Shown here in pieces: positions 800 to 33,332 of a stretch of DNA of 64,000 nucleotides (positions within the stretch are counted from its first letter, which is position 1; every line of letters starts with the position of its first letter). The notes under the pieces are model-generated. The model saw nothing but the letters and a program-made list of their open reading frames with translations, had not been told where the DNA came from and searched no databases. This DNA is from an uncultured Heliobacteriaceae bacterium (GTDB lineage: Bacteria > Acidobacteriota > Blastocatellia > RBC074), in the NCBI GenBank assembly GCA_964563495.1, contig CAZLYK010000009.1:45-64044 (forward strand), given 5' to 3'. The position numbers and the translations under genes are program-made.

Positions 800-2584
800 A
801 TGCGTTGGTCACAGTATTTTATTCCCACACTCCGCGAAGATCCGGCTGATGCCGAGGTCATCAGTCATAAACTGCTTTTGCGCGCCGGGTTGATCCGTCA
901 GCTGGCCTCCGGACTCTATTCGTATTTGCCGCTCGCGCAGCGTTCGATCCTGAAAATCTCCAACATCATCCGCGAAGAGATGAATGCGGTTGGGGGCCAG
1001 GAGTTCTATCTGCCGGCGCTCAATCCGGCGGAGATCTGGCAGGAGAGCGGTCGCTGGTCGATGATGGGCGACAATATGTTTCGCCTCAAAGATCGCAAAG
1101 GCGGCGATTACTGCCTGGGCATGACCCACGAAGAGGTGATCACCGACATCGCGCGAAACGAACTGCGTTCATACAAGCAACTGCCGCAGGTCTGGTATCA
1201 GATCCAGATCAAATTCCGCGATGAGCCCCGCCCCAAATCGGGATTGCTGCGCGTGCGCCAGTTCACCATGAAAGACGCTTACTCATTCGATGTCGATCCG
1301 GAGGGGTTGGATAGATCGTTCGAGGATCAGCGTAGCGCCTACCGCCGCATCTTCTCGCGCTGCGGACTGGAATTCGTCATCGTCGAAGCCGATTCGGGGG
1401 CGATGGGCGGTTCGGCCTCGAACGAGTTCATGGTCTACACCGACGCCGGCGAGGATATGGTCGCGAGCTGTCCGAAATGCGGCTACGCTGCCAACACAGA
1501 GAAGGCTCGATCGAATCTCCCGGCTGTCGATGATGGAGAGACCGACCTGGCTGTCGAGGAGTTTCCGACTCCGGGAGTGCGGACGATCGAGGATCTGGTC
1601 GGCTTCCCGGGCGGAGCGACGGCCGATCGCCAGATCAAGACCCTGGTCATGGTCGCGGTCGCCGAAAAGGGAAAGCAGTCGCAGTCTACGCCTCTGCTCG
1701 CGCTTTTGCGCGGCGATCACCAGGTCAACGACGCCAAGCTCTTCAACGCCGCGGCCAGGCTGATCAACCAGGACGGCTGGGAGGTAACCCAGGTACGCCC
1801 GGCTCATCCGGGTGAGATCGTCGAAGTCATGGGCGCGCAAGCCGGCAGCCTCGGCGCCGTCGGTGTGACCAAGACATGGGTGGTTGCCGACGAGGCGCTG
1901 CGCGGTCGCCGGAACATGACGACCGGGGCGAACCGGGACGATCACCACCTCCGCGGAGTGAATATCGACCGTGATATCAAGGTCACGCTCTGGACTGACC
2001 TGCGCACGGTTGCCGAAGGTGAGGGCTGTCCCAGATGCGACGGCGTTCTGCGTGTCGCCAAGGCCCTCGAAGTCGGCCATATCTTCAAACTCGGGACAAA
2101 ATACAGCACCTCTATGGGTGCGCACGTTCTGACCGCCGAAGGCAAAGAAGTACCGATCATCATGGGTTGTTACGGCATCGGCGTCGAGCGGATTCTGGCT
2201 GCGGCAATCGAGCTCAGTCACGATGAGGCCGGGATTATCTTCCCAATGACCATCGCGCCATTCCAGATCATCGTCTCACCGCTCAATCTCAAGGACGCGG
2301 ATCTGAAAGCCTCATCGGATCGGATCTATCAGCAGCTCTCGGCTGCCGGGATAGAGGTCCTTTACGATGACCGCGACGAGCGCGCCGGCGTCAAACTCAA
2401 TGACGCCGACCTGGTCGGATTCCCGTTCCAGATCAGAGTCGGCCCGAAGAAGTTGAAAGAGGGCAAGGTCGAGTTTTACGATCGCGCAACGCGCCAGGCT
2501 CAAGATGTCGCGGCCGACTCCGCCGTCGAGCTCGCCCTCCAGCGGATAGAGCAAGCCAAACGTAAGTTAAATAGACAGGATTAA
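800..2584 (+). CDS. proS: proline--tRNA ligase (bacterial type with editing domain)
   Basis: 594 aa; conserved class II aaRS N-terminus [13 protein letters not shown]...LLRAGLIRQ; last 4 codons + stop (NRQD*) come from the intergenic repeat. Confidence 0.9.
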
Positions 2585-2652
2585 CAGGATTTTACAGGAT
2601 TAAACAGGATTAAAGACAAGGCATATAAAAATCCTGTTAATCCTGTCTATTT
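2570..2652. repeat. palindromic CAGGATT-heptad intergenic element (family A), copy 1
   Basis: aatagacaggattaacaggatt...aatcctgttaatcctgtctatt; asymmetric arms (4 vs 2 heptads); core aaagacaaggca in reverse orientation. Confidence 0.9.
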
Positions 2653-3654
2653 TATTCTGAGCACTGCCGCCCCGCGGACGGCATCGTGCTTGAGCGCGTT
2701 GAGCGCGGCGTTCACTTCAGCCAGATCGAAGACCTGGGTCCGGGGATTGATCGGGATTTCCGCCGCGGTTCGCAAAAAGTCCTCGCCGTCCCGGCGCGTA
2801 TTATTGGCGACGCTGCGGATGACTCTTTCGTGGTAGAGCAGCCGGTAATCGATCGGCGGGATCTGGCTCATGTGAATTCCGCCGAGTGCGATCGTCCCGC
2901 CTTTCTTCAATACTTTGAGAGCCGAAATGACCAGTTCGCCGGCCGGCGCGAAGATGATCACGCTGTCCATCTCGACCGGGGGATGATCGTCGCTGAAGCC
3001 GGCCCACGCGGCGCCGAGCTCGACCGCCAGTTCCTGGTGTCTGCGGTCGCGGGTGAAAGCGAAGACTTCTACGCCCCAGTGCCGGGCTATCTGTATCGCG
3101 ACGTGAGCCGCCGCTCCGAACCCATAGAGCCCCAGCCTCCGACCGGGGCTCTGACCCTCCAGACCCGACAAACGCAGCGAGCGAAAGCCTATGATCCCCG
3201 CACAAAGCAGCGGCGCAGCTTGCGTATCGCTGAATACTTCCGGAATTGAATAGACGAATCCGGCCGGCGCTATCGCGTATTCGGCGTAACCTCCATTGAC
3301 GATGTATCCGGTAAAACTTGCCCGTTCACAAAGGTTCTCCTTGCCTTCGCGGCAGAAATCGCACTCGCCACAGGTCCGGTGCAGCCATGGGATCCCGACG
3401 CGGTCTCCCAGTTTGAATCCAGAAACGTGTTGACCGACCTGCGCGACCCGGCCGATGACCTGATGGCCGGGGATGATCGGAAGATGCCGCTCGGGCAGCT
3501 CGCCCTCGATCACGTGCAGATCGGTCCGGCAGACTCCGCAGACGCTGACCTCGATCAGCAGTTGATCCGGCCCCGGCTCGGGCACCGGCGCATCGGTCAA
3601 TACGAGCGGATTGGTCTCAACCGGCGCAATCTGGTTTAGTAGACAGGCTTTCAT
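2647..3654 (-). CDS. zinc-dependent alcohol dehydrogenase family
   Basis: [13 protein letters not shown] and [15 protein letters not shown] zinc-binding motifs; ORF-track N-terminal extension is translation of the repeat, so start trimmed to ATG at 3654 (MKACLL). Confidence 0.8.
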
Positions 3655-3663
3655 GTCGGGAAT

Positions 3664-3787
3664 AATAGACAGGATCAACAGGATTTTTGCAGGATTAAAC
3701 AGGATTTTAAAAGAGGTAAATTGGATGTTAACTACCACCCACCCCTTCTAAATCATCCTGTTTAATCCTTTCAAATCCTGTCTATTT
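3664..3787. repeat. family A element, copy 2 (non-palindromic insert in the loop)
   Basis: both arms present, about 43 nt non-palindromic centre. Confidence 0.85.
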
Positions 3788-5944
3788 CTTTCTTTTCCTG
3801 CTCAACTCGACGACGGAGAAATCGACCAGGTGTCGATCGACATTGACCCGGTCGACGCGCACGCGGACGCGATCGCCGAGCTTGAAAGTCCGTTTCCCGC
3901 TTCGCCCGATCAGGGCGTGTCTGCGTTCGTCAAAACGATAGTAATCGTCGATCAGCGTAGCCACGGGCGTCAGACCCTCGATGTAGAAATCGTCGAGCTC
4001 GACGAAAAATCCGAAATCCTTGACGTTGGTGATCAGTCCGTCAAACTCCTCGCCGATGCGCTCGGCCATAAAAACGGCTTTCCGCCATTCGTCTATCTCC
4101 ATCTCCGCGGCGTCGGCGGCGCGCTCGCGCTCGCTCGATTCCTCGCCGATCAATTCCAGTTCGCCAAAGGGAAATCGCGGGGAACTCCTGAGCAGTCCGC
4201 GAAGAATCCGGTGGACGATCAAATCAGGGTAGCGGCGAATCGGGGAAGTGAAATGGGTGTAGACCGGGGCTGCCAGTCCAAAATGGCCGGCATTTTGCGC
4301 CGAGTATCGCGCGCGCTGGAGCGATCGCAGCATGGCGTAAGCCAGCACGCGCTCTTCCGGCTTTCCCTCGATCCGTTTAGACAAATGCTGATAGTCTTTC
4401 GAGCTGACACCTGAGGCAGGAAAGCCGTAACCATACGCCTGAGCCAGCTCGGCGAATTCGATCACCCGCTGCAGTTCGGGCTCTTCGTGGATCCGGTAGA
4501 GTGAAGGCACGCCCAGTTTTTGCATATGCCCGGCGACGGTCTCGTTGGCGAGCAGCATGAACTCTTCGATAATCCGGTGGGCGATGTTGCGCTCGGCTTT
4601 GAGCACGCCCGCGATCCGGCCTTCATCGTCGAATTCAAAGATTGATTCGGGCAGGTTGAAATCGATCGCGCCGCGCTGCTCGCGCATCCGGATCAGGATG
4701 CGCGCCAGCTCCTCCATGGCCTTGAAAAGATCGATCAGCTCGGCGTAGCGCATGGCCAGGTGCGGATCGGCGTGGGTGAGCAGCTGGTTGACATCGGTAT
4801 AGGTCATCCGCTCGTTGCTGCAAATGACCGTCTCGCGCAGATCGTAGCCGACGACGCGGCCTTTCCGGTCGATCTCCATGAGCGCCGACATGGTCAACCG
4901 ATCGACCCTGGGGTTGAGCGAACAGATGCCGTTCGAGAGCTTTTCGGGCAGCATCGGGATCGCGCGTTCAGGAAAATAGACGGACGTGCCGCGCAATCGC
5001 GCTTCCTGGTCGAGCGGGGATCCCTCGCGGACATAATAACTGACATCGGCGATATGCACGCCGAGATGAAAATTTCCGTTTTCCAACTGGTGCAGGCTGA
5101 TCGCGTCATCGAAATCGCGAGCCGTTTCGCCGTCGATCGTGACCGTCGGCGCATGGCGCAGATCGAGACGACCGGCGACCTGCGTCGAGGTCACTTCGGG
5201 CGAGATCGCTTCGCTCTCGTCGAGGACCTCCTCGGGAAAGATGTGCGGGAGGTCGTGTTTATGGATGACGATCTCTATGTCCATGCCCGGTGTGGCGCTT
5301 GACGCGCCGAGCTGCGCAATGATCCGCCCTTGCGGGTTGAGCCGGTTGTGCGGGTAACTGGTCACCTCGACCAGCACGATCCAGCCGTCGGCGAGCTCGC
5401 CAATCTCCCTGTCTCTTTTGAGATCGATATCGAAAGGGAATTTTTCATCGAGCGATTCCGCCCAGCTCTCGCGGAACCCGTGGTGCAATCTGCCGATCAC
5501 TCGCAATTGCCCGCGCCGCAGGATCATTTCGACTCTGGCTGAGCGGTCGCGCTCGCCCTGCCGGCGTGCGACTCCAGCGACGACGCGATCGCCGTCAAAG
5601 GCGCCGTTTAAATCCTCGGGTGCGATTCGTATCCGGCCGCGCGTGCGCTCCGCCGGATCGTCGGGAACCAGACTGATCGATTTGCGGCGGCGCTGGCGGA
5701 TCGTCCCGATCAGTGCCCGGTGCGAATTCGACCAGCGAAATCCCTGACCGTAGCGGCGCAGCAGCCCGACGCTCTGCAATTGGTTCAGCAATTGCTGGAC
5801 TGCCTTCTGCTCGGTGCGGTTGAGCTCCAGCAACTCCCCCAGTTCTCGCGCGGAGAGCCCGTCCGGTTCTTCGCGGATTGCGCTCAGGATCGCATCGATG
5901 TCGATCGATGCGGCCGTTTGATTGGTCTGTTTTCTTCGGCTCAT
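3782..5944 (-). CDS. rnr: ribonuclease R (RNB family 3'-5' exoribonuclease)
   Basis: 720 aa; N-terminal HTH, RNB catalytic core, C-terminal S1 domain and Lys-rich tail (SRKRKK). Confidence 0.9.
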
Positions 5945-12287: not shown

Positions 12288-13031
12288 ATGTCTTCTATGC
12301 CGGATGAGCTCGTCCGCCTTTCCAAACTCATGTCTGAACGGGGCATCTGCTCGCGCCGTGAAGCGGATGCCCTGATCAGCCAGGGGCTGGTGCGGGTCGA
12401 TGGTGCGATCGTTAATCAGCTCGGCGTCAAGGTCTCGCCACAGGCGAAGATCGAGCTCGATCCCAAGGCTCTCAGCCATCAACAATCATGGGTCACCATT
12501 ATTCTCAACAAGCCCGTCGGTTACGTCTCGGCCCAGCCCGAACCGGGTTACACTCCGGCGATCAAGCTCATCACGCCGGCGAATATGTTCGGTAAATCCG
12601 AGCTCAAATTGCGGCCCGAACATTTGAAAGGTTTGGCTGTCGCCGGTCGATTGGATATCGATTCGCAGGGACTGTTACTGCTGACACAGGACGGCCGGAT
12701 GGCCAAGAAGATCATCGGTGAAAAGAGCGGGATCGAAAAAGAGTACATCGTCCGCGTCGCCGGCTCGCTTTCGGAGGAGAACCTCGGGCTTTTGCGTGAC
12801 GGCCTCTCGCTCGACGGCAAGCGGCTTCTGCCCGCACGGGTCGAGTGGATCAATCGCGACCAGTTGAGGTTCGTCCTCAAAGAAGGGAAAAAACGCCAGA
12901 TCCGCCGTGTCTGTGAGATGGTCGGTTTGAAAGTCATCGGTCTCAAGCGGGTGAGGATCGGTAAGATCGCACTCGGCAATTTGCCGGAAGGGAAATGGCG
13001 ATTCCTGCGACCTGACGAATCAATCGATTAA
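12288..13031 (+). CDS. pseudouridine synthase, RsuA/RluB family (S4 + catalytic domain)
   Basis: S4-like N-terminus; [17 protein letters not shown] catalytic-Asp motif. Confidence 0.8.
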
Positions 13032-13033
13032 TT

Positions 13034-13135
13034 AATAGACAGGATTGACAAGATTCCTGCAGGATTAAACCGGATTTAAGACAACCGAAAAAATCCGGTT
13101 TAATCCTGCAGGAATCTTGTCAATCCTGTCTATTT
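13034..13135. repeat. family A element, copy 4 (near-perfect palindrome)
   Basis: aatagacaggattgacaagattcctgcaggattaaaccggatttaagacaaccgaaaaaatccggtttaatcctgcaggaatcttgtcaatcctgtctattt. Confidence 0.9.
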
Positions 13136-14338
13136 CCTCTCGTTGATCATCTCCTTGATGCGTTCGATGGCTTCCTGAATCGCTTCGAGCGAGTTGGCAT
13201 AGGACATTCTCAGGTACCCTTCGGCTCCGAACGCCGAGCCGGCAGTCAGGACCACTCCATACTTCCACAACAGCTCGTCGGCCAGCTCCTTAGAGGTGGC
13301 GAATCCGCAATTTTTCATCAACTCTCTGACGTTCGGGAATGCATAAAAAGCGCCTTCCGGTTCGCCGCATTTGATTCCCGGGACCTGGTTGAGCGCGGGG
13401 ATCAACCATTCGGCGCGGCGCTGGTACTCGGCGAGCATGGTCCTGACCGAGTCCTGCGATTCGGTCAAGGCGGCGATCGCGGCCTTCTGCGCGATCGATG
13501 CGGCATTGGTCGCCGAGTGGCTTTGGATCTTGGTCACTTCCGTCACCCACTCCTGCGGGCCGAGGGTGAAGCCGATGCGCCACCCGGTCATGGCATAAGT
13601 CTTGGAGAGCGAGCCGGCGATCAGGACTCGCGACCTCAGCTCGGGCGATAGCGTTGCGGCCGAATGTACTTTATGCGGCGAGTAGACGAACTGAAGATAG
13701 CATTCGTCCGAGATCACCCAGAGACCCTGCTCGACCGCGACCTCGACTATCTTCTTGAACTCCTCCGGATGAATCACCCGTCCCGTCGGATTCGACGGCG
13801 AGTTGATGATCAAGAGCTTCGCCTTCGGCGTGATCGACGCTTTGACCAGATCCGCGGTCAAATGGAAATCGGTCATCTCAGTCTCGACCGGAACGATTTT
13901 TCCTTCGGCAAAATGGACGATCTCCGGAAATGAGACCCAGCACGGTTTTTCCAGCAAGACCTCATCGCCGGGATCGATCAACCCGAGCACGGCGTTGAAA
14001 ATCCCCTGCTTCCCGCCGAGCACGACGCAGCATTGCTCCGGCGCATAATCAGAGCCGAAGTTGGAATTCATATAATCGCAGATCGCCTCACGCAAAGGCA
14101 TAATCCCGCTCGGCGAGGTGTATTTGGTGAAATTCTCATCGAGCGCACGCTTGGCGGCCGCTTTGATATTTTCCGGCGTCGGAAAATCCGGCTCACCGAC
14201 GCCCAGGTCGATCACTTTGACTCCCTGCGAACGCAACTTTTCAGCCGCCATGACCACAGCCGCGGTAGACGACAGCCTGGTCAGCCGGGCTCTGGCTGAA
14301 ACGGGAAAGGCGGTTGCGGATTTTGAGGATGTGCTCAT
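13130..14338 (-). CDS. PLP-dependent aminotransferase class I/II (aspartate aminotransferase-like)
   Basis: 402 aa; [18 protein letters not shown]-lysine region. Confidence 0.85.
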
Positions 14339-14820
14339 TTTTTTCCTTGCTGCTTCATTTTTTCGATGACGATATCCGGGACCAAGCCTTCGATCGAGCC
14401 GCCGAGACTGAACACTTCTTTGATCAGGGTCGAGCTGATGAATGAATTTTCCTCAGCCGCGACCAGCATGACGGTCTCGACATCCGGATTGAGTCGGCGA
14501 TTCATGAGGACCATCGGCAGCTCATATTCGTAATCCTTGATCGATCGCACTCCGCGAATAATCGCATCCGCCCGGCGCCGCCGCGCATAATCCACCAACA
14601 ATCCCTCGAAGGTCTCGATCGTGACCTGAGGAAAACGAGGCTTGAGCACCTCGGTCAGAAGCTCTATTCGCTGAGAGATCGAAAACATCGGCTGTTTGCC
14701 GGGGTTGACCAGCAAGGCGACGATGACTTGATCGAACAGCTTGCACCCGCGCGCAATGATGTCGACATGACCGTTGGTCGGCGGATCGAATGAACCAGGA
14801 TAGATGGCGAGTTTGGACAA
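14335..14820 (-). CDS. coaD: phosphopantetheine adenylyltransferase
   Basis: 161 aa; [18 protein letters not shown] (T/HxGH) motif; 4-nt overlap with the upstream gene. Confidence 0.9.
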
Positions 14821-14844
14821 GGCGTTTGTCTTTTCTCTCCCTGC

Positions 14845-15429
14845 TCATGAATCGGTAGCAGGCTGCGATGGTAACACGGGTTCAAGGCTGTAAAAAGTCA
14901 AACAGGACTCGCCCTGCCTGATCTCGCGATAGGGGCGCAATCGATCATAACTCGGGGCGAGCGGCATCTGCCGGCGATGCTCGACGATGACTAGACCGTC
15001 ATCGGCGATCAATTGGTTGAGGGCTAATTGCCGGAGGACCGGTGAATAGATCCCGGAATCATACGGGGGGTCAAAATAGCAGATATCGAACCGCTCCTCT
15101 TCCGAAGCCAGTTTTCTCAAAGCCTTGAGCGCTTCAGAGTTGATCAGCCTGAACCCCTCCTCGATCCCGCAGTGGCTCAGGTTCTCGCCGATCACTGCGG
15201 CGGCTTTGCGTGATGCCTCGATGAAGGTGACGCCGGCCGCTCCGCGTGAAAGCGCCTCTATCCCGACCGCACCCGATCCCGCACACAGATCCAGAAAACG
15301 CGCCCCGGCGATCTGCGGAGCGATGACATTGAAGAGCGTCTCGCGCAGCCGGTCCGATGTCGGGCGCACCTGCACCCCTTCGAGCGTCTTCAGCCTGCGG
15401 CCTTTGTATGTCCCGGCAATTACTCGCAT
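14845..15429 (-). CDS. rsmD: 16S rRNA (guanine966-N2)-methyltransferase RsmD
   Basis: [13 protein letters not shown]...[18 protein letters not shown]; DPPY motif; conserved rsmD-coaD arrangement. Confidence 0.85.
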
Positions 15430-15439
15430 AAAATTATTG

Positions 15440-15468
15440 AATAGATGGGATTGTCAATCCTGTCTATT
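15440..15468. repeat. family A minimal copy (outer arms only)
   Basis: aatagatgggattgtcaatcctgtctatt. Confidence 0.7.
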
Positions 15469-16441
15469 ATTTATACCCATGAGGATGGTTCAGATGCCAG
15501 CGCCAGGCGGACTCGATAATCCGATCGAGCTCGCTCTGACGCGGCTGCCAACCCAGGTCGCGCATGATCTTATCGGGGCTGGCGATCAGCACCGGAGGAT
15601 CGCCCGGGCGGCGCGGAGCCGCCTCGGTCGAAATCCATCTGCCCGTGACTTGCCTCGCCATTTCGACCACTTCGGCTACCGAATAACCGCTCCCGTAACC
15701 CAGATTATAGACATCGCTGCGTTTTTCCGTCACGCCCAGGGCGAGGATGTGCGCGGCTGCCAGATCGACGACGTGAATGTAATCGCGCACGCACGTTCCG
15801 TCGGGCGTGTCGTAGTCTTCGCCGTAGACGTCCACGTGGCCGGCTTTGCCGGCCGCGACTCGCAGCACGTTCGGTATCAGATGGGTCTCGGGTTGGTGGT
15901 CTTCGCCGAAACGATCGCTTGCGCCGGCTGCATTGAAATATCGCAGGCTGACATAATTGAGCTGGTGGGCTTCCTCGTACCAGCGCAGCAATCGCTCGAA
16001 GGCGAGCTTCGATTCGCCGTATGGATTGGCCGGAACCGCAGCCGTCTCTTCGTTGATCGGCATCGTCGGCGGCGCTCCATAGACCGCCGCTGTTGAAGAG
16101 AAGACCAGCCGTTTGACACCGGCCGCCAGCATGGCATCGAGCAGCGCGATTCCCCCTCCGACATTGTTGGTGAAATATAGATGAGGCTGAACCACCGATT
16201 CGGCGGCCAGGCTCGATCCGGCCATGTGGATCACCGCTTCGATCCCATGCCGGTCGAGCGTCTCGACCAGTCTCCGGCGATCCGAAAGCTCGCCCTCGAC
16301 CAGAATCGCCTCGGGCGAAACGGCCGCCGCGTGCCCTTTGCTCAAATTATCCAGGACAATCGGGTTGTGACCCTGAGCAATCAAATACTCGACGATCACG
16401 CTGCCGATGTACCCGGCTCCGCCCGTGACAAGAACCTTCAT
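15467..16441 (-). CDS. galE: UDP-glucose 4-epimerase
   Basis: [14 protein letters not shown] Rossmann motif; YxxxK SDR catalytic motif; 324 aa. Confidence 0.85.
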   Translation of the reverse strand: MKVLVTGGAGYIGSVIVEYLIAQGHNPIVLDNLSKGHAAAVSPEAILVEGELSDRRRLVETLDRHGIEAVIHMAGSSLAAESVVQPHLYFTNNVGGGIALLDAMLAAGVKRLVFSSTAAVYGAPPTMPINEETAAVPANPYGESKLAFERLLRWYEEAHQLNYVSLRYFNAAGASDRFGEDHQPETHLIPNVLRVAAGKAGHVDVYGEDYDTPDGTCVRDYIHVVDLAAAHILALGVTEKRSDVYNLGYGSGYSVAEVVEMARQVTGRWISTEAAPRRPGDPPVLIASPDKIMRDLGWQPRQSELDRIIESAWRWHLNHPHGYK

Positions 16442-16461
16442 GAATAAATTGGCCTCCTAAA

Positions 16462-16547
16462 AATAGACAGGATTGACGGGTTTTTTGCTCGATTAAACAG
16501 GATGACCTCCTGTTTAATCATGCAAAAATCCCGTCAATCCTGTCTAT
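16462..16547. repeat. family A element, copy 6
   Basis: aatagacaggattgacggg...cccgtcaatcctgtctatt with compensatory arm changes. Confidence 0.9.
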
Positions 16548-16563
16548 TAATAGCCGGATTATT

Positions 16564-17511
16564 TTAACTGCCGGGGCAGGGAACGGTCTTTCCATCCGGG
16601 CCGCGACAAAGTTTACCGGGTATCAGGACGCCGAAGCACTTGCCGTCGACCAAAATGCCACCCTTGGGACAGTCACCGGTCGCGCCCGGAGGACTGCTGG
16701 CGGCGCTGAAGATGACCATGTTCGGAGCGATAAAGCCTCCGGCCATGACCGTTACGCCGGGGAAGAAGAGCGAGTGGTCGTAATATTCAATGCCGTAATA
16801 ACTGCGAAACATCCTGTCGCTCTTACGGCTGACCACGCCGACGATCGGCCCCTTACCCGGTTCGCTCTCGTCGAGCGATAATCCCGAATCATTGGCGCCG
16901 GCATTGCCGTCCAACTGGGTATCGGCCGGCTGGCCGGGCAGCCGTGTCGTCCCCATCTGGGCGAGCACAACCAGATTGGCCGGGGGCGGCGGCAGCGCGA
17001 TATTCCCCTTTTGCTGCGTCGCCAGATAAGCATCGTAGAGTTCCTTGACGAGCGGGTCACCCGGGCGAACCAGACGCCAGTTGGACATGCCGGGCGTGCA
17101 GGGCGTCATCGGATCGCACAACGCCGATGGGCGAAGCAGTCTGATCTTCTTGCCTCCCACATCTATGCCCTCTATCAACTGAGTCAGATCGGTCGGAAAC
17201 TGCTGGCCGCCCCGCATCGCCGCGTAGCGCCCCAAAGCCGCCGAGATCTGCTGCCCGCGCCAGAGCATCTCCTCTTCGCGCTCGCGCTGCGTCTCCATTT
17301 TGACCATCGGCGCTGTCGCCGTCATCAAAATCAGCGAAAACATCATGACACCAATCAAACCCACCAGCGCGTAACCGCGCTCGCCGCGTTTCACCTTGCG
17401 GCGCTGAGCAGTGTCTCCCGCCCGCTGATTGATCAAATTCTCTTTCATCTTCCTCATACCTCTGAACTCTCGCTCTCTCAACCGTTCAGCCCGGGGCTCA
17501 GCCATTCTCAC
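16564..17511 (-). CDS. hypothetical membrane protein, possibly pseudopilin-like
   Basis: N-terminal hydrophobic helix [17 protein letters not shown] resembles a non-canonical prepilin segment (no Glu at +5); start uncertain. Confidence 0.4.
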
Positions 17512-18352
17512 CCGAAAAATTGATCACGTGCGAAACTTTAATATTAGTGTCCTCCACTTCGATCCTCTGTGAAGTGATATTGATGACGCGCCAGTTCTTG
17601 AACTTCTGTCCCTTGACGACGTTGATCACTTCGTCGTCGGTTTGTGACTTGAGCACCGCAATCGTCCCCTTCTTGCTCACGATCAAACCGATAAATCGAT
17701 AAGGCGGCGCCGGCGGCTCCGCCACGTTGAGCGTGATCTGATTGGAGTAGAGCGCGGCGTTAGTTTGACTGCGAACCTGGACGCCAAGATTCGACGCACG
17801 TCCGATCGTCTCCGCCGAGACCTTCGCCTTGACTTCGTTGGCGCTGACAAAAGTTGTCGGGACCTCGCGGCCCTCAATGTAGACTCTGGAATCGCTCGGG
17901 AACTTTTCACCGAAGATTGTCAGGTTAAACTCACCCGTCCGCGCGATCACGCCCGAAGGGTTGACCGAATAGGCGGTCAACGGCGGAGGCGGGGGAGGCG
18001 GGGGCGTCGGCACAGGTTTGGCCGGCGTTGGCGTGGGGGGCGGCGGATAAACGAAGATGTTGCGGCCGGTTCCACCACCCGCCGCGGCCCTGCTGCTCAT
18101 CGACGCCAGATCCAGCGGCTGTGAAATGATCGGCTCGGGCGATCCGCCCGGACGGGGCGTCGGCTGCGGCGCCGGCTTGACTACCGCGCTCGCTCCGGTC
18201 CCCGCCGCCGGCGGGCTCGACTTCGACGGAGTCTCGCCGCCGGTGAAAAATTGAAGATAGACGATACCGGCAAAAATGACGAACAACACGCCCAACAGAA
18301 TCTTCTTGCGCGTCTCTCCAGAATTAATACTGTTCGAATTTTCCTGACTCAT
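17498..18352 (-). CDS. hypothetical Pro-rich membrane-anchored protein (PilP-like position)
   Basis: N-terminal TM helix, poly-Pro linker, C-terminal beta-rich domain; lies between the PilO-like gene and the pilin-like gene. Confidence 0.4.
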
Positions 18353-18418
18353 GACAAATTCAATCCGGACAAATCAACTAACCCGGGTCTATCTATTCGC
18401 CGCCGCGTGCGCGAGCTA

Positions 18419-19147
18419 TCATCTGGTCTCGGCCGGGCGCCGAAAATATGTGTCCATCTCGATCTTGAGCGAAACCGGAACTGCTTCGGGGCCGCTCAAT
18501 TGAATCTGTTGCGCTTGGCCGCCCCTGGCGGCCATCTGCCTCACCTTTTCGGCCTCACCCTGAAACGAGAGCGAATTGATAATTAAAAATTGATTGCTCC
18601 GCTCCAGGTCGGCGAGGAATCCGCGCAAGTTCAAATAATCCCCGATCACCGTGGTGTCGATTCCGAGCGACGGATAGAGGTTGATCTTCTTCTCGTAGCT
18701 CGCTTTTTGCGCCTTTCCGCTGCCGTCGTCCTCGGCCGTAGCCTCCGGTTCGAGCGGGCGATAACTGGCGTCTCCGACGATCACCTTGTGGGTTCTTCCC
18801 AGATTGTCGATCTCGTTGATGATCTGAGTCATCCCGCGCTCGTCCGGCTTCAAATAGCCCTGAAATTTGCCCAGACTGTCGATGATCTTCTCGGCATTGC
18901 TCGCCTGATCGAGGCGCTTCTTTTCATCGCTCGTCATCTTTTGCAGGCGTGTGCGCAACTCGGTCTCACGGTTCTTAAGCCCAGCCATCTCTGAATTGAG
19001 CGGCTGGACCTTGGTCAAATAGAAAGAGATGACCAGGGCCACAAAGACCAGCGCCGTAACCAGAAAGATAATCTCCAGCGCGCTCAAACGAACCCTGCGC
19101 AGCGTTTCACCCACCCCGCTGAAATTAATAATTCGTCGCAGGTTCAT
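18419..19147 (-). CDS. PilO-like type IV pilus/T2SS assembly protein
   Basis: single N-terminal TM helix followed by coiled coil, ~240 aa; overlaps the upstream gene by 4 nt. Confidence 0.5.
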
Positions 19148-19773
19148 TGTTTCTTCTCCGCAATCTGATAGTTCGGGCTGCCGCCGGTCGCGGCTTGTGG
19201 CGGGAAATATTCAACCATCAGCGTGAACTCGACCTCGTCGGTTCCCTCGACCGGTTTTTTTGTCAGCGGCTGAACCTTGAATCGCCCGGAATCGTGCAAC
19301 CGGTTGATCATCCCGGTCACGTCCTGACCGCTTTTCCCGATCACATCCAGCATGAGCGTCGCCGCGCTGATGTTGCCGCTGATCGTCTCGGTCCGCTCCT
19401 GCGGCTGAATCTGGTTGACCGCCACCCGCATGACCCGCACCGAAGCCGGTATGTTGCGCTCTATATCATTCAAAAGCTGCGACCACGAAAACACCCGGCG
19501 CGCGATCAACTCGCTCGCCGCTACCAACTCGCGGTTCTGATCGGTCGTGATCGTGACATTGCCGCTCACCGGTCTGTCGTACCTCCTCAGCTGCGTTTCC
19601 AACCCTCTAATGATATTTCGCCGGTTCGATATCTCACCCTCGATCAGGGTCATCTGCCCGATCGCTTCCAAACCAAAATATGATGGCACGATAAACAACA
19701 CCAGAATCGCCAGCCAGAATAATCGACGATTGCGAAACGGCTCGCTTGCCAGATTGACTATTGGTTTCATCAT
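19144..19773 (-). CDS. PilN-like fimbrial assembly protein
   Basis: [13 protein letters not shown] then TM helix, similar to the PilN INLLP...R N-terminus. Confidence 0.5.
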
Positions 19774-20085
19774 TCAACTTTATCTGATTGCCATTCTTGA
19801 TCGTTCTTCAGCGGATCTGAGGATTGGGGCGCAGAGCAACGCCAACTATAGCATAAAGATCAGATTGGCTAACAGCAGAGATCAGGGGCGGGAAGTGTGA
19901 TTCGTCTATTATTACAAAAAAATCGAGGTGACCTTCCCCCGCTCCAGCGTGGCTGATCACCTCACACAAACTACACACAGCCGCTATCACGCTTCTATAG
20001 GGAAAAGGTTCCCGGATTTTTCTCTAAATAATCAATTTTTCTGACTTTTGCCCCACTTCCGGCTTCATTCTAATGAATAGCCAGG

Positions 20086-20163
20086 ATAAACAAGACTTTT
20101 GCAGGATTTTACCAGGCCAGCTCTGGTAAAATCCTGCAAAAGTCTTGTTTATCCTGGCTATAT
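20086..20163. repeat. family A diverged variant
   Basis: aatagccaggataaacaagactttt...aaaagtcttgtttatcctggctat; arms diverged but still complementary. Confidence 0.75.
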
Positions 20164-20251
20164 CCCGGGCCGCTTAGGGTATGCAAATATCAGTATTGCT
20201 TGATATTTAGCGACACAGTCGGCATACTGGCCGTCACGTTTTGAGCCATCA

Positions 20252-22051
20252 ATGAAACATCCGGGAAGATCAATGACCGAATCGACGACCAAAATCGTGC
20301 GCGGAATCTCGGGCGCCCGCTGGCGGTTGAACCAATGCGACGAAGAGTTGGTGGACGGTTTGCGCCGGTCCACGGGTGAGGACGAGATTCTGATCCGCTG
20401 TCTGGTCAATCGCGGCCTCTCGAATGCGGAAGAGATCAAGAATTTCCTGGAGCCGCAGTTCTTCAGCCAGCTTCACCCGCCCATGCTGCTGCGGGATATG
20501 GCGGAAGCCGTCGGGCGGTTGCGACGCGCCGTCCGCGATCGGGAGCGCATTCTGATCGTCACCGACTTCGACGTAGACGGGACTACCTCGAGCATCATTC
20601 TATCGCAGACATTAAAGCTGCTGGGCGGGGCAGACCTCGTCTCCTGCTACATCCCGGACCGCTTCAGCGAGGGCTACGGTCTTTCCCGGCAGATCGTCGA
20701 GCAGGCCGCCGCCGGCGGCTTTCGCATCATCCTGACGGCCGACATAGGGATCAAATCACACGCCGAGTCGCGGCTGGCGCGCGAGCTCGGCATCGACCTG
20801 ATCATCTGTGATCACCACCTGCCCGATGGGGAAGACGTCCCGGCCGATGCCTTCGCCGTACTTTGCCCCAAGGGATCTTCGGGAACCGGCTATCCGAACA
20901 AGCACCTGGCTGCCTGTGGAGTCTCGCTCAAACTGGCTGATGCGCTGCTCGAAGGACACTCAAAGAGGGAAGCGATTTTAGCCTCGCTCGCCAAACTCAC
21001 CGCCATCGGGACGATCGCCGACATGGTCGATCTTTCGGCCGGGGAAAACCGCGCCATCGTCGCTCACGGTCTGAAAGCTCTCTGCCGGCCGAGCAACAAC
21101 CCGGGTTTGCGCGCACTGCTCAGACTGGCTCAGGTTGGCGACCCAATCACCTCTTACGATATCGGCTTCAAAATCGGCCCGCGGATCAACGCCGCCGGGC
21201 GGATCGCGCACGCCAACTCGGTCCTCGCCCTGTTCGAGGCTAAAACGGATGATGAAGCGACCGAACTGGCACTCAAACTCGACGCCCTCAATTCCGAACG
21301 CCAGCATATCCAGCACATTCTGGTTGAAAAGTTGAAGAAGCTCGTCTTTGAGGGGAATGATCGATTTCCACACGTTCTGGTCTTTGCCGGCAGCGAGCAG
21401 GAGGATTTTCATCGCGGCGTGATCGGTATCGCCTGCTCCAAAATGGTCGAGATGACCGGGCGGCCGACCTTTATCTGCTCGGTCAATGAAGATGGCATTG
21501 CTCACGGCAGCGCCCGCTCGATCGGCGGATTCCATCTGGTTGAGGCTCTCGATTCGGTCTCGGATCTGCTCGTCAAATATGGAGGTCATCCCATGGCCGC
21601 AGGCTTCACGGTTCCCTCTGAAAAGATCGACGAGCTTCGCCGGCGACTCAATCATTACGCCGAGAAGATCCTGAGCGATCAGGATCTGGGGCGAATCCTG
21701 ATCGCCGACGCGGAAATTCGAGTCGAAAGCGCGACCGTCGAGACTACCCGATCCCTGGCCAGACTGGAACCACACGGAGTCGGCAACCCCACTCCGCTCT
21801 TCCTGCTGCGCGGCGCTCCCCTGCGCTCGATCCAGGTGCTCAAGGAGAAGCACCTCAAATTGCTCATCGGCCCGGAAAGGATGCCGCTCGAAGCTCTCTG
21901 GTGGAATGCAGCCGACCACCGATCGAAGCTCGAAGGGGCGTCTTCGATCAGTCTGATCTGCCGGCTCGAGATCAATCGCTGGAACGGCCGCGAAACCTGC
22001 CAGCTCAAGATCATCGATGCCAAGATTGAGGAAAAGAATAGACAGGATTGA
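20252..22051 (+). CDS. recJ: single-stranded-DNA-specific exonuclease RecJ (DHH/DHHA1)
   Basis: [21 protein letters not shown] motif; 599 aa; C-terminal NRQD* supplied by the repeat. Confidence 0.9.
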
Positions 22052-22134
22052 CAGGATTTCTGCAGGATTGAACAAGATTTATATCTTGTTCAATCCTGCA
22101 GAAATCCTGTCAATCCTGTCTATTCTTTTCCTGG
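22037..22134. repeat. family A element, copy 8 (perfect palindrome, extended by gaaaag/cttttc)
   Basis: aatagacaggattgacaggatttctgcaggattgaacaagatttatatcttgttcaatcctgcagaaatcctgtcaatcctgtctatt. Confidence 0.95.
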
Positions 22135-22175
22135 TTGACAAAGGGAAGCTGTGGCCGTTAAGATGCGCATTCGTA

Positions 22176-22251
<76 letters not shown>

Positions 22252-22262
22252 CTTTTAGAAAA

Positions 22263-22301
22263 AACAGTTACGGCTTCCGAAAGGAAGCCGTAACTGTTTT
22301 T
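22263..22301. terminator. bidirectional rho-independent terminator
   Basis: 15-bp perfect stem acagttacggcttcc/ggaagccgtaactgt, GAAA loop, T-tract on both strands; lies between the tRNA-Pro 3' end and the 3' end of the convergent cupin gene. Confidence 0.85.
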
Positions 22302-22737
22302 ACGACACTTTCAGCTTGGCGTCCTTTGGAGGATTCTCGGCAAACCATTCCGAGATCGCCGGCATATGTTTCTCGAAATCCCCGGGAATCGAAAAGTTCA
22401 GGACGCCCGCCCGCTCAGAACTACGGTTCTCGAAATCATGCGTGACTCCGCCAGGCGCCAGGATGAAGGAGCCTTTGGGGGCTTCAACCCAGCGATCACC
22501 GACGAGAATGCTCATGGTCCCATCAATCACATAGAAGATGTCGTCCTCGGCGTGGGAGTGCGCTCCGGGACCTTGTGTGTGGGGTTCCAGCCACCACTCA
22601 GAGATAGAGTACCCGCTCTGTGTTTCATCCCCGTCTGCTTTGAAGACGGCGCTGATCCGTCCCATCGGGTAAGAACGCCCTTCGCCGGGAAGCAGAAATA
22701 TGCCGGCTCGCTCTGTCGGTCTAGCCTGGTCGCTCAT
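22300..22737 (-). CDS. cupin domain protein
   Basis: 145 aa; double-stranded beta-helix His motifs (GAHSHAEDDIFYVIDG...GGVTHDFEN). Confidence 0.75.
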   Translation of the reverse strand: MSDQARPTERAGIFLLPGEGRSYPMGRISAVFKADGDETQSGYSISEWWLEPHTQGPGAHSHAEDDIFYVIDGTMSILVGDRWVEAPKGSFILAPGGVTHDFENRSSERAGVLNFSIPGDFEKHMPAISEWFAENPPKDAKLKVS

Positions 22738-22912
22738 GTTCCCTCCTCTCAGACGTATTTATCGATAGCGCCGCCAGAATACAACCGGTAATCGCCGGGC
22801 GCAACGATACAGTCACAACCGAGTCACAGTTCGCCGGTTCGGGTTCGACTCGATTGCATTCCAGATGCTTTACTGACATCATCGCCTCAAAGCAGAAGGG
22901 AGCCGAGCTAAG

Positions 22913-23890
22913 ATGGCAAATTCACAGCAACCGACCTTGTTTAATCATAAACTCATAGTCATCGCAAAGGCCTTGAATGTTCGCCAATCACCATCACCGC
23001 AAGGTGAAATCGTTGGTTTACTTGGAAAAGATGAGGTCGTCGATTGGCTCGACACATCGGAAGATGGCCAGTGGTACAAGGTTCAGAAAGGCAATCTCGT
23101 CGGATGGTCATTTAGAAAATTTCTCACCACTGTCACGCCATCAGAACTAGACAAAATTACTCAGGTTGCCGCGGCCTCGGAGGTTGCGCGCTATCGATGG
23201 CTCGACCGGGGAGTAGCGCCGCTCGGATACATTAAGGGAATGGCCGTTGCTTACGCGAGGGTCTATTGCAAGCTGTTAGCCGGAGATGCTGCTGCCATAG
23301 AGATGGCAAAAGCAAAGACGACAGTAACCGGCAAAGATGCCCTGGCGCATTATCATCAAATCTTTCAAGATGCCGGAATGGACAACAGCCGTGCCGGGGA
23401 CGACACGCTTCGACATTTATTTGTACTCCTGATCGGACTTGGGATGCGTGAAAGTTCCGGGCGTTATTGTGAGGGACGTGATAGATCGGCGAGTAATACC
23501 ACAGCGGAAACAGCCGAAGCCGGGCTTTTCCAGACCAGTTACAATGCCAGAACCGCGAGCCCATTGCTGCCGGTATTATTTCATCAGTATTCGGCTAATC
23601 CGGCAGGGTTTGTCGATATCTTCAAACAAGGCGTCAGGTGCACCGATGCAAGCCTTGAAAACTATGGAGATGGTGACGGGAGGGAGTTTCAGCGTTTATC
23701 AAAGGCTTGCCCGGCATTTGCAGTCGAATTCGCCGCGGTGGGGCTGAGAAACATTCGGAAACACTGGGGGCCGATAAACCGCAAAGAAGCAGAGGTCCTG
23801 CCTGAGGCCGATGAGATGTTAATGCAGGTACAAAATATTGTAGATAAGTTTAATCTCTGTCCAGCGCTCAAAGGAAATAGCCAGGATTGA
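22913..23890 (+). CDS. SH3b domain protein with C-terminal lytic-transglycosylase-like region
   Basis: N-terminal bacterial SH3 pattern (ALNVRQSPS...GWSFRKFL); C-terminal GMRESSG...AEAGLFQ resembles the SLT catalytic ES...AxGLMQ motif; gene looks AT-richer than its surroundings. Confidence 0.55.
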   Translation: MANSQQPTLFNHKLIVIAKALNVRQSPSPQGEIVGLLGKDEVVDWLDTSEDGQWYKVQKGNLVGWSFRKFLTTVTPSELDKITQVAAASEVARYRWLDRGVAPLGYIKGMAVAYARVYCKLLAGDAAAIEMAKAKTTVTGKDALAHYHQIFQDAGMDNSRAGDDTLRHLFVLLIGLGMRESSGRYCEGRDRSASNTTAETAEAGLFQTSYNARTASPLLPVLFHQYSANPAGFVDIFKQGVRCTDASLENYGDGDGREFQRLSKACPAFAVEFAAVGLRNIRKHWGPINRKEAEVLPEADEMLMQVQNIVDKFNLCPALKGNSQD

Positions 23891-24166
23891 CAGGATTTCA
23901 ACAGGATTATAGCAAGTTTCACGTTTGTGCGACCGCGTCCTCGCGGTCGCACAAACGTGAAACTTGCTGCCACAGTGTAAGCATTGATTGATGACCAATG
24001 CTATCAGCGCGGTTTTCAGTTTCGTGCGTCCTGTCAGACGCCCTCCCTGACGGTCGGTCTTCTGACAGGACGCACGAAACTGAAAACCGCTGTAAACCGG
24101 ATCAAAGACAGGGCAAAACAACATCCGGTTTAATCCTGTTGAAATCCTGTCAATCCTGTCTATTTC
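23876..24166. repeat. composite: family A element split by a nested ~186 bp hairpin-rich element (family B, 23909..24094)
   Basis: left A arm 23876-23908, right half (aaaccggatcaaagacagggc...aatcctgtcaatcctgtctatt) 24095-24166; insert holds a 26-bp perfect stem hairpin (23912-23967), a 6-bp hairpin (23980-24000) and a ~32-bp stem hairpin (24006-24092). Confidence 0.85.
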
Positions 24167-24206
24167 CTTCTTTGATCTGCTCATTCGTCTGACTGATTCA
24201 GTTTTG

Positions 24207-26351: not shown

Positions 26352-26989
26352 GGCTTCCTCCCACGGTCGAGTTCGCGCAACAGCCAGGCCCTGGCCAACC
26401 TCCAATCTCTTTTGACGGTTTCGGGTGAGATGCTGAGAGTTTCCGCCGTATCTTCAATGCTCAGCCCGCCGAAGTAGCGCAGCTCCACCACCCATCTCTG
26501 CCTGGGGCTGAGATCTGCCAGGATTTTTAACGCATCGTCCAGCGCCGATAGTTCCTCGCGTTGATCCTGCGAAACCAACTGCGCCTCATCCAATGCCACA
26601 AACCGGAAGTCGCCGCCCCGTTTGATCGCCTTCTCAGCGCGCTTTATATCCAAGAGGATCTCCTGCATCAGTCTGGCGCAGGCGGCAAAGAAATGATCGC
26701 GGCTCTTCCAATCTACCTGACTTTGGTCAACCAGGCGCAGGTAAACCTCATTGATGAGCGCTGTCGCCTGTAACATGTGGCCGGGGTTCTCGCGGTTGAT
26801 CCGTGCCCTGGCGCGCTTGTGGATTTCCCCGTAGACCATAGTAATGAGCTCATCAAAAGCGGCAGGATCTCCATTGCGCCAATCCAGGAGCAATTGTGTG
26901 ACTGTCCGTGACTGGAAGTGATCCATGAATCTCCTCTGATAAGTCACCCACTCTTGGTGTGCAGTTACCGCTCGGTGATCATACTGCAC
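26348..26989 (-). CDS. ECF-type sigma-70 family sigma factor (kinase-associated subgroup)
   Basis: sigma-70 region 2 (LINEVYLRL) and region 4 (TLSISPETVKRDW); GTG start at 26989. Confidence 0.8.
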   Translation of the reverse strand: MQYDHRAVTAHQEWVTYQRRFMDHFQSRTVTQLLLDWRNGDPAAFDELITMVYGEIHKRARARINRENPGHMLQATALINEVYLRLVDQSQVDWKSRDHFFAACARLMQEILLDIKRAEKAIKRGGDFRFVALDEAQLVSQDQREELSALDDALKILADLSPRQRWVVELRYFGGLSIEDTAETLSISPETVKRDWRLARAWLLRELDRGRKP

Positions 26990-27223
26990 GGTAAGCTTTC
27001 AACTCCAATCAAACTCGCGATATCTTTGGCTTAGCGTCGTCCACTTCAGGAGACATCAAAAAAAAATTCCAGCGGCCTTACCTTTTTTTCACTCAGTTTC
27101 CGCACAGGGAATTGGAGGGGCAATGGGTTTGTCAATTCAAAGCTCGTCCCTTTCCATGGAATTGAAATGCTGTTAGTCAACTTTTGTTTGATCAACCTTT
27201 AAGATAAAGAGAGGTAAGCAACC

Positions 27224-27919
27224 ATGTCAAAACGTAGCGATCTTCAAATTTCCTCCGATGTCCAGAAGCCGAAGGAACCATTGGATCCCAAAGAGCCAAA
27301 AGATCCCAAAGACCCTAAGCCTAAGCCAATCGTGCCGCGTCCGGTAACCATCAGCGCCTTGACCATGGACTGCGATGATGAGAACGATCCGTTAAGCAGT
27401 GACGAACCCTATTTATTGGTCTTCAGCCTCAATCTTGTAGGGCTGCCAAAGCCAAGAGTGATCAAACTGGGCCCTTTCAACGTCAGTGCTTCCGATACTA
27501 CGTTTGTCTTCCCTCCGAATATTCTTTGGGGGGTGGATGGTCAACCAACAATCATCAATCACCCCGACGATTTGCTCCTGCTGGTAGCTTTGATGGAGAA
27601 TGACACATCTGATCCCGAAGCAGTCCGGTCATTCGTCGAAGGTTTTATGGTGGCAAGCTCAGTTGAGCACGCAACGAGCGCAGGAAATCACAATGACTTC
27701 GCGAGCCGAATGATAAACGCTATGCAGGGCTTCATCAGTGCCCCGGCATTGGCCACCGGCCCGATTGATCCCGATGACCAGATCGGCCCGGTGCAGGAAC
27801 TGCGCATCAATCAAGATGACCTAAATCTGGTTTATAGCGATAAACTCAACTCGAGCGATAAAGCCATGGTTTTCGCGGGAGACGGAGCCAGATACTTTGT
27901 TCGCTTCCGTATCCATTGA
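27224..27919 (+). CDS. hypothetical protein with a K/P/E/D-rich N-terminal repeat
   Basis: 231 aa ORF with good SD (aagagagg); PKEPLDPKEPKDPKDPKPKP low-complexity N-terminus; AT-rich upstream leader; no known domain. Confidence 0.5.
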   Translation: MSKRSDLQISSDVQKPKEPLDPKEPKDPKDPKPKPIVPRPVTISALTMDCDDENDPLSSDEPYLLVFSLNLVGLPKPRVIKLGPFNVSASDTTFVFPPNILWGVDGQPTIINHPDDLLLLVALMENDTSDPEAVRSFVEGFMVASSVEHATSAGNHNDFASRMINAMQGFISAPALATGPIDPDDQIGPVQELRINQDDLNLVYSDKLNSSDKAMVFAGDGARYFVRFRIH

Positions 27920-27928
27920 ATGAGGAGG

Positions 27929-28033: not shown

Positions 28034-28037
28034 CTTC

Positions 28038-30559: not shown

Positions 30560-30572
30560 GAGCGGGTTTTAA

Positions 30573-32258: not shown

Positions 32259-32264
32259 GAAAGG

Positions 32265-33323: not shown

Positions 33324-33332
33324 AGACGGGTA

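Follow-up and report, generated by a model that had tools for sequence, protein, structure and literature searches.

In a 64,000-nucleotide stretch of contig CAZLYK010000009.1 (hereafter the window, meaning the whole of this stretch), which belongs to a soil bacterium of the Blastocatellia (Acidobacteriota), a prediction made from the sequence alone had noted that five unrelated genes end in the same few codons, asparagine-arginine-glutamine-aspartate-stop (NRQD-stop) or a close variant, supplied by the first 15 nucleotides of a repeat. The locus thus raises the question of how unrelated proteins come to share a tail, and of what became of their native C-termini. These 15 bases form the outer tip of an interspersed repeat that encodes no protein and can fold into a hairpin. 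It is of a type resembling repetitive extragenic palindromes (REPs) and their hairpin-forming doublets (REPINs) or miniature inverted-repeat transposable elements (MITEs), and its copies have spread among this genome's short intergenic spacers, directly against the 3' ends of genes. The shared tails are very probably explained by a hairpin repeat with built-in stop codons that lies on gene 3' ends and is kept where the protein stays intact. The open reading frames (ORFs) that end in the NRQD-type frame have the following tails, the last of which was absent from the original prediction:

2570-2584, plus strand: tail of proS, AATAGACAGGATTAA, read as AAT AGA CAG GAT TAA (N-R-Q-D-stop); the ORF at 800-2584 encodes a prolyl-tRNA synthetase of 594 residues
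22037-22051: tail of recJ, AATAGACAGGATTGA, NRQD-stop with TGA; ORF 20252-22051
35979-35993: tail of a GHMP/galactokinase-like kinase gene, AATAGACAGGATTGA, NRQD-stop; ORF 34551-35993
59398-59412: tail of ATP-grasp 1, AATAGACAGGATTGA, NRQD-stop; ORF 58585-59412
32225-32239: tail of a sulfatase gene, the one-base variant AATAGAGAGGATTGA, NRED-stop; ORF 30767-32239
23876-23890: tail of the SH3_3-domain ORF 22913-23890, AATAGCCAGGATTGA, NSQD-stop; a sixth case

The predicted ending, aat aga cag gat tga/taa, was found in proS, recJ, the kinase gene and ATP-grasp 1 with every coordinate exact, and the NRED-stop of the sulfatase was confirmed to come from a variant copy at 32225. All five claimed gene ends hold; together with the sixth and with the genes that use a second stop within the element, the total is 12.

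The 15-mer shared by these tails is the outer end of a near-perfect palindromic repeat of 60-105 bp, about 20 copies of which (full or half) occupy 1,857 nt, or 2.9%, of the window, at a density of roughly one copy per 3 kb. Allowing up to two mismatches, the 15-mer has 36 matches in the window, where 0.11 would be expected from dinucleotide-preserving shuffles. An arm consists of a cap, AAT(A/G)G, followed by two to four tandem ACAGGATTnn units of about 10-11 nt, and two such arms are inverted about a short variable centre. Arms are 25-57 nt long and 74-100% complementary, those of 42-50 nt often 100%, and a single arm repeats ACAGGATT units in direct orientation and is not self-complementary. 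Copies differ internally from one another, and their interior has no coding capacity, the sole ORFs being mechanical read-throughs. The stem of about 40 bp is maintained by covariation of the arms, with double compensatory changes at 16 of 34 stem pairs among 13 aligned copies, and the predicted RNA fold of the copy at 35979-36082 has a free energy of -80.5 kcal/mol (z = -12.6). An Rfam scan at the gathering threshold returned only two tRNAs and no match on the element; a literature search with the arm sequence gave only chance matches to primers, and no description of the element was found. The copies that supply the NRQD-type tails are:

2570-2651: full element between proS and the alcohol dehydrogenase (ADH) gene, with 25-nt arms, 100% complementary, holding the proS TAA at 2582-2584 (plus strand) and the ADH TAG at 2647-2649 (minus strand)
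22037-22124: full element after recJ, with a palindrome that reaches 22029-22132 and 50-nt arms, 100% complementary
35979-36082: full element between the kinase gene and galE, with 42-nt arms, 100% complementary
59398-59469: full element, more diverged, separating ATP-grasp 1 from ATP-grasp 2; the NRQD-stop of ATP-grasp 1 is formed by its first 15 nt
32225-32262, plus strand: degenerate half-element (left arm only) after the sulfatase gene, directly followed by the next ATG at 32265
23876-24164: composite element with outer arms that enclose other palindromes, its first 15 nt forming the NSQD-stop tail

In the composite copy, 221 nt lie between the outer arms and contain perfect or near-perfect palindromes at 23911-23968 and 24009-24090, which are unrelated to ACAGGATT and may represent nested copies of other repeat families. 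A diverged relative of the element at 20076-20161 (AATAGCCAGGATAAACAAGACTTTTGCAGGATTTTACCAG..., with perfect arms of 39 nt) is located in the divergent promoter region upstream of recJ and is the sole copy called terminator-like by a simple scan.

How the same DNA end can close so many genes follows from its reading frames. Translated inward, an arm gives NRQD-stop in frame 1, an open reading (IDRIDRIF..) in frame 2 and an immediate stop in frame 3 (xAA TAG, stop-TG..), and the palindromic structure makes these outcomes the same from both sides. The 12 element-terminated genes comprise six of the NRQD type, five of a TAG/tAA type and one of a taA type, so that the TAG frame serves as a stop as often as the NRQD frame in the window; the remaining, open frame is used by no gene in the window, and no read-through occurs there. 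The genes ending at the second built-in stop, with their elements, are:

2647-3738, minus strand: ADH gene, ending in ...K-TAG inside the arm
3782-5944, minus strand: RNase R-like gene, with its last K codon (aAA) and TAG (3782-3784) from the right arm of the full element 3664-3786
13130-14338, minus strand: aminotransferase gene, with TAG at 13130-13132 in the right arm of the full element 13034-13134
44955-45710, plus strand: GDSL lipase gene, with TAG at 45708-45710 in the degenerate half-element 45706-45745 (plus strand); the next ATG is at 45746
15467-16441, minus strand: epimerase gene, with a TAA made of one flank base and the element's AA
15439-15468: mini-palindrome of 30 nt at the end of the epimerase gene, consisting of the two terminal 15-mers only
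37164-37442, plus strand: acylphosphatase gene, the third base of whose TAA is the first A of the full element 37442-37535

Among the 21 arms in the window that face the 3' end of a gene, 12 have the stop inside the arm; the other nine lie 2, 5, 9, 13, 13, 15, 16, 42 and 50 nt past it. Counted over all arms, stop overlap affects about a third. The overlap itself is short: the first 5-15 bases of the element supply the stop and up to four residues of the tail.

The original prediction held that each insertion had replaced or truncated the native C-terminus, and it proposed a comparison with orthologues for the native tails, which was carried out. ProS orthologues (119 from Blastocatellia and Acidobacteriota, 77-83% identical) end in ...(R/Q)KLN plus zero to three variable residues, typically at 592-595 residues; none of the 119 ends in NRQD. 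The window protein, at 594 residues, ends in ...RKLN-RQD, whose asparagine corresponds to a native, conserved position; the difference amounts to no more than three unconserved residues. The corresponding 3' ends without the element read aat caa tga in relative L001 and aac gaa gta gaa tag in relative L003. The closest RecJ orthologues end in ...DKTN-stop and many others in ...AAIE-stop; the window protein ends in ...EEKN-RQD-stop, three residues longer than ...DKTN-stop, and the only one of 119 relatives with an NRQD end is P0121, which is 100% identical and comes from an independent assembly (Logan). Conservation among the kinase orthologues runs to ...FGHL(K/I)L, after which come 1-20 variable residues; three of them stop at ...HL(V/I)LR, whereas the window protein continues as ...HLILR-NRQD-stop, four residues longer, and none of the 59 orthologues ends in NRQD. 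Conservation of the sulfatase ceases at ..EPRW, 14 residues before the stop, with NRED lying 10 residues past that point among variable tails. ATP-grasp 1 and its paralogue ATP-grasp 2 end at the same point, and the tail of the former lies past the last conserved column. The last Pfam domain was matched to near the end of its profile (at least 172 of 188 positions) in nine of the ten element-terminated genes checked, the exception being the sulfatase, which has a weak, partial C-terminal Pfam match and was judged by alignment instead.

Element-free orthologues ending in the same tail were looked for, and none was found; because such orthologues lack it, the tail codons and the stop do derive from the element. 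The part of the prediction that assigned tail and stop to the element therefore stood, whereas conserved truncation was not seen: at most three residues were swapped and three or four added. Genes of relatives that have no element at the end in question, 70-83% identical where measured, come to a close zero to three variable residues from the junction. On these alignments, the element sits on the native stop, plus or minus three codons, and exchanges or adds three or four residues of a variable tail while truncating nothing conserved. The same residues end six unrelated proteins in the window and others in other phyla, as they might if NRQD were a selected C-terminal peptide motif for sorting or degradation. 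That idea is extremely improbable. The copies agree as DNA, for at least 40 nt past the stop into the palindrome; the tail is missing from the orthologues of other species; genes are stopped just as frequently by this DNA end in the other frame, without NRQD; and the proteins, housekeeping enzymes of the cytoplasm, share no common fate.

The surroundings of the element were compared with L004, a 1.68-Mb contig that shares gene order with the window over 12288-22051, where most proteins are 69-79% identical and one is 47% identical. No copy of the element is present in the 21.7 kb of syntenic L004. Its recJ ends in aca AAT TGA; its aminotransferase ends in ..ADRAT-stop and its epimerase in ..EGYEE-stop, versus ..NERK-stop and ..HGYK-stop in the window, so that tail lengths in the window differ from those of L004 by -1 to +3 residues. 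At the position of 13034-13134, where in the window the element fills the entire 98-nt spacer between a pseudouridine synthase gene (stop at 13029-13031) and the aminotransferase gene, L004 has an unrelated 100-nt spacer with a hairpin of its own.

This comparison also bears on whether the gene ends might be chimeric joins or mis-called ORFs, a concern prompted by the origin of the contig in a metagenome-assembled genome (MAG) of which, in the window, 2.9% is repeat. Such an artefact is barely plausible. Gene order agrees with L004 across five element sites, the independent Logan assembly has an identical recJ end (P0121, the only near-identical sequence from the protein searches, with the same filled site), the copies differ internally and hence were not collapsed, and in none of the six NRQD-type ORFs does an in-frame stop precede the element. 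Public annotation has the same ends in P0001 and P0241, which are 100% identical NCBI proteins.

The 82-bp element at 2570-2651 is the whole spacer between the convergent proS and ADH genes and gives both their stops; in the relatives L001 (4779-5961) and L003 (4785-5821), one to three small genes that are absent from the window lie between proS and the convergent ADH gene. Spacers in apparent operons measure only about 0-35 nt after subtraction of the element, so that insertions sparing the ribosome-binding site must fall on or next to the stop; short spacers alone could yield much of the stop association. At 33333-37442, a cluster of galT, the galK-like kinase gene, galE and the acylphosphatase gene has a copy of the element after galT, after the kinase gene and after the acylphosphatase gene, so that stems of about 32-49 bp lie inside an apparent single operon. 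Overall, 17 of the 20 copies are between unidirectional or convergent genes and three are in divergent spacers.

The proposed course of events is that the native stop would be displaced when the element arrives, or by later deletion of the bases between stop and element; that is, insertion may have been on the stop, or nearby and followed by loss of the spacer. In either case the gene would still terminate at once, after zero or one (K/E/Q) or four (NRQD) foreign residues, and only copies that leave the protein essentially intact would survive. Such a survival filter would place the overlaps at the extreme 3' end, past the last conserved residue, and leave the open frame unused.

The element is not confined to this lineage. 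A scan of one genome per species with the exact 22-base pattern AATAGACAGGATTRACAGGATT gave at least 95 stretches (loci L006-L100), which among those listed come from Acidobacteriota, Gamma- and Betaproteobacteria, Chloroflexota, Armatimonadota, Planctomycetota, Bacteroidota, Verrucomicrobiota and Firmicutes. Exact matches thus span no fewer than eight phyla of bacteria and include one archaeon (Ca. Methanoperedens BLZ2), and the isolates among the listed matches are Thiobaca trueperi DSM 13587 and Pelotomaculum propionicicum MGP. Example loci are:

L017, 115-190: Ca. Methanoperedens BLZ2
L094, near 3560-3737: Pelotomaculum propionicicum MGP
L024, 6002-6100: Thiobaca trueperi DSM 13587
L097, 2509-2608: Thiobaca trueperi DSM 13587

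In these other genomes the matches belong to the same kind of inverted-repeat element, about 70-250 bp long, with arrays of ACAGGATT units. Coding-like ORFs in the loci of other phyla include at least seven with a convincing ...NRQD-stop end, while ends at the cap TAG are commoner; the ORF ends in frames 1, 2 and 3 number 15, 8 and 33 in the listed loci, some of them probably opposite-strand shadow ORFs. Viral contigs yielded no match to the arm pattern, and plasmids yielded a few, which are unannotated. Breadth across phyla is unusual for a repeat of the REP or MITE type and implies horizontal spread.

To which class the element belongs was approached through its flanks, by comparing 67 complete copies from the window and other genomes, at k = 2-10, with shuffled pairs as control. 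There is no target-site duplication: direct matches between the flanks equal the shuffled value (0.66 versus 0.76 +/- 0.09 at k = 4). Duplication of a TA or AT target was considered and rejected, as the A/G of the cap differs between the arms of single copies and there are no direct flank repeats. Inverted complementarity of the flanks is about four standard deviations above the shuffle, the left flank being purine-rich and the right flank TCTTCTC-like across phyla; because the flanks are complementary, the palindrome often runs a few copy-specific bases outward (for example 22029-22132). MITEs, as derivatives of DDE insertion sequences, are like the element in their terminal inverted repeats, their size under about 300 bp and their lack of coding capacity, but differ in having a flanking direct target-site duplication. 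The REP/REPIN systems and their REP-associated tyrosine transposases (RAYTs) share with it the lack of target-site duplication, a short, abundant, hairpin-forming and extragenic nature, location between convergent or unidirectional genes and a terminal tag ending in T(A/G)G. A RAYT gene flanked by the repeats in inverted orientation is a further mark of these systems, and at one locus (L042, below) a RAYT-family gene has the element on both sides. REP/REPIN systems differ in their GTAG (GT[A/G]G) tag, in place of which the cap is AATAG/AATGG here; in the REP unit, which is itself a small imperfect palindrome, whereas the arms here are tandem ACAGGATT arrays; and in being mostly lineage-specific and vertically inherited, whereas the present element occurs in many phyla and is absent from 21.7 kb of L004, a syntenic relative that is 77-79% identical. 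Judged by its sequence features, the element resembles REPs/REPINs more than a DDE-type MITE, because of the missing duplication, the kept hairpin, the T(A/G)G cap and the position between unidirectional or convergent genes.

Several known repeats also meet coding sequence. The Correia elements (CREE) of Neisseria are inverted repeats of about 100-150 bp that are co-transcribed with genes and form long stems sensitive to RNase III. Their terminal sequence, TATAGTGGATTAAC..., loosely resembles AATAGACAGGATTAAC, with no homology beyond this short resemblance, and they duplicate a TA target; the element has no such duplication, and its cap A/G polymorphism argues against one. In GTAG-tagged REPs, the TAG is documented as the stop of flanking ORFs, and REP dimers can lie within small target palindromes, which then border them as short inverted sequences (Di Nocera et al. 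2013, PMC3733652); REP dimers or REPINs occur with RAYT (TnpA-REP) transposases (PMC3733652; Bertels and Rainey, PMC3337134). Overlaps of QMITE1 and QMITE2 with functional genes of Coxiella burnetii are all at the 3' end, by 1-50 bp, and leave the proteins neither notably extended nor truncated, with a changed tail composition; the same paper considers a stop provided by the element and a possible effect of RNase III (PMC5896051). The likeness is that of a small inverted-repeat element on gene 3' ends that alters only the tail, but the sequences are unrelated, and the QMITE2 model has direct repeats together with terminal inverted repeats, whereas flanking direct repeats are missing here. Among enterobacterial repeats of the RU-1/ERIC type, a fusion of RU-1 past a conserved domain 'eliminated the normal stop codon' (Delihas 2007, PMC2759123); there too a repeat fused to a gene 3' end encodes the tail, but 13-35 residues are added, sporadically, whereas the built-in stops here limit the addition to four at most. 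Rickettsia palindromic elements (RPEs) are inserted in frame inside genes and translated through, with the protein spared (cited in PMC3733652), and so likewise join coding sequence harmlessly, whereas the present element closes the frame at the gene end. The phenomenon is thus already documented for REPs and MITEs, and the window provides an unusually frequent instance of it, owing to stops in two frames at both ends and to very short spacers.

No recurrent transposase ORF was found in the 95 listed loci of up to 8 kb, and none is present in the window. All-versus-all clustering of the ORFs of these loci yielded common families only (TctC, SDR, aminotransferase, ABC), and the search for an autonomous copy between distant arms in L097 and L087 found ordinary genes (cytochromes, a terminase-like protein, GNAT). 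At L042, from a gammaproteobacterial MAG (S13.Bin138), an ORF of 178 residues at 2397-2933 on the minus strand matches NCBIfam NF047646, REP-associated tyrosine transposase, at 100 bits (cut-off 80); it was missed by a Pfam scan and matches weakly the E. coli TnpA-REP structure 4ER8. The element flanks this gene on both sides, as a full copy at 2121-2313 and an arm at 3005-3048. Past each of the two right arms lies a nearly identical stretch of 23 nt (TCTTCTC..AAACCAGCAAAATC), a likeness that suggests duplication linked to the transposase cassette. A hidden Markov model built from the L042 transposase found no second copy in the 95 listed loci or the window, a metagenome scan recovered RAYT homologues at 40-59% identity, none with ACAGGATT arms, and a tblastn search of plasmids with the L042-type transposase produced nothing close. 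The link to this transposase is therefore a lead, not a demonstration, and mobilisation of the element by a single-strand HUH (RAYT-type) transposase would be the mechanism to which it points.

It may tentatively be proposed, as something rather less probable than its opposite, that this is an undescribed hairpin family moving between phyla and domains with a RAYT-like HUH transposase travelling along, and that half-copies have been co-opted as gene junctions. If so, the stop-bearing termini would let the element sit on or replace the stops and spacers of compact operons almost without cost, which would account for its very high density in some genomes, and decayed half-copies would provide a stop, a spacer and an AGGA ribosome-binding site. 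The exact cross-phylum and archaeal conservation and the possible RAYT partner may deserve separate study.

The position of so many arms on a stop (12 of 21, with most others within 16 nt) is what would be expected if the mobilising enzyme recognised a sequence or structure at gene ends, candidates being a purine/pyrimidine-run palindrome (GAAGAA|TTCTTC), an existing terminator hairpin or a motif of the AAT/TAA type. In keeping with site-specific targeting are the purine-rich and TCTTCTC-like flanks with complementarity above the shuffle, the native Asn codon on which the element's AAT falls in both proS and recJ, the over-representation of frame 3 in other genomes and the description of REP dimers inside small target palindromes (PMC3733652). 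The Asn of the kinase, however, is not native, and since most operon spacers are about 10-35 nt without the element, insertions that spare the Shine-Dalgarno sequence and the start would hit the stop region anyway. Targeting of this kind is possible, if somewhat improbable.

The strength of the hairpin invites a further explanation, in which the copies are kept as terminators, 3'-end stabilisers, RNase III sites or protein-binding arrays (ACAGGATT every 10-11 nt) and the overlap with the stop is tolerated or used to couple translation to hairpin formation. Transcribed, the 40-bp hairpin might act as an mRNA 3' end or a processing signal. The compensatory changes and the extremely stable predicted RNA stem are consistent with such a domesticated function, as are the small share of copies in divergent spacers, the AGGA found 9 nt before the next ATG in two half-elements and the lack of enrichment of canonical terminator-like sites in 20001-40000 (18 found versus 21.3 expected). 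TTTTCTT-like tracts follow many copies. A consensus terminator scan for a short GC-rich stem and a U-tract nevertheless left copies of this family uncalled, their stems exceeding its limits and being AT-rich at the base. A strong terminator would moreover be harmful inside apparent operons such as galT-galK-galE and ATP-grasp 1-2, where copies occur; the perfect palindromy may come from the way in which hairpin elements are copied; and L004 does without a copy in 21.7 kb, with no other repeat prominent at its junctions. A domesticated function as the reason for the gene ends is accordingly doubtful.

Several observations weigh against the explanation preferred here, that of a stop-bearing, REP-like hairpin repeat tolerated on gene ends. 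Its arms are direct-repeat arrays, not small palindromes, and its cap is ATAG/ATGG rather than GTAG. The link to a transposase comes from one of the 95 listed loci, RAYT homologues of 45-59% identity lack the arms, and the window has no transposase. Simple insertion does not explain the convergent spacer 13034-13134, where the earlier sequence must have been replaced or later trimmed. No empty-site genome above 95% nucleotide identity was found, the best relatives having 77-83% protein identity. Finally, ORF ends in other genomes show an excess of frame 3 over frame 1 (33 versus 15), which hints at a bias of target or deletion not predicted by selection alone. The stop-bearing repeat offers a clean example of a selfish hairpin element saturating the tiny spacers of a compact genome, its end stops making landing nearly neutral.

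The repeat affects gene models at both ends. A dozen proteins in 64 kb have repeat-encoded tails (NRQD or a terminal K/E/Q), which extrapolates to hundreds per genome, and such tails could be misread as motifs. It was further predicted that several ORFs begin inside the right arm. The peptides concerned (ILFNP, ILSILSI, ILLILSI) are indeed frame-1 translations of the right arm, but the real starts are ATGs that lie downstream, and these ORFs are ORF-calling artefacts, mechanical extensions into the repeat. For the ADH gene and the ORF at 42638, an in-frame ATG lies just downstream of the arm-derived peptide. For ATP-grasp 2, the real start, as judged by aligning it with its two paralogues, is ATG 59482 (MKIGV...), 12 nt past the arm. 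Masking of the repeat would remove such false N-terminal extensions and improve gene models.

Starts very close to an arm had been predicted, within about 12 nt, for ATP-grasp 2 and the gene at 45746, and they were found at 12 nt and immediately after the arm, respectively. A degenerate half-element immediately precedes the start of each of two genes, the one at 45746 and the lipoprotein gene at 32265. These half-elements (32225-32267 and 45706-45748, left arm only) form the entire junction of consecutive genes, with the upstream stop in the cap region. In both junctions, the AGGA of the third ACAGGAT unit is 9 nt before the downstream ATG, and these repeat remnants may have been co-opted as a ribosome-binding site. 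The three tandem ATP-grasp (RimK-like) paralogues at 58585-61121 are about 265-275 residues long and 26-29% identical, and together with the same-strand genes that follow they may constitute a peptide-ligase cluster.

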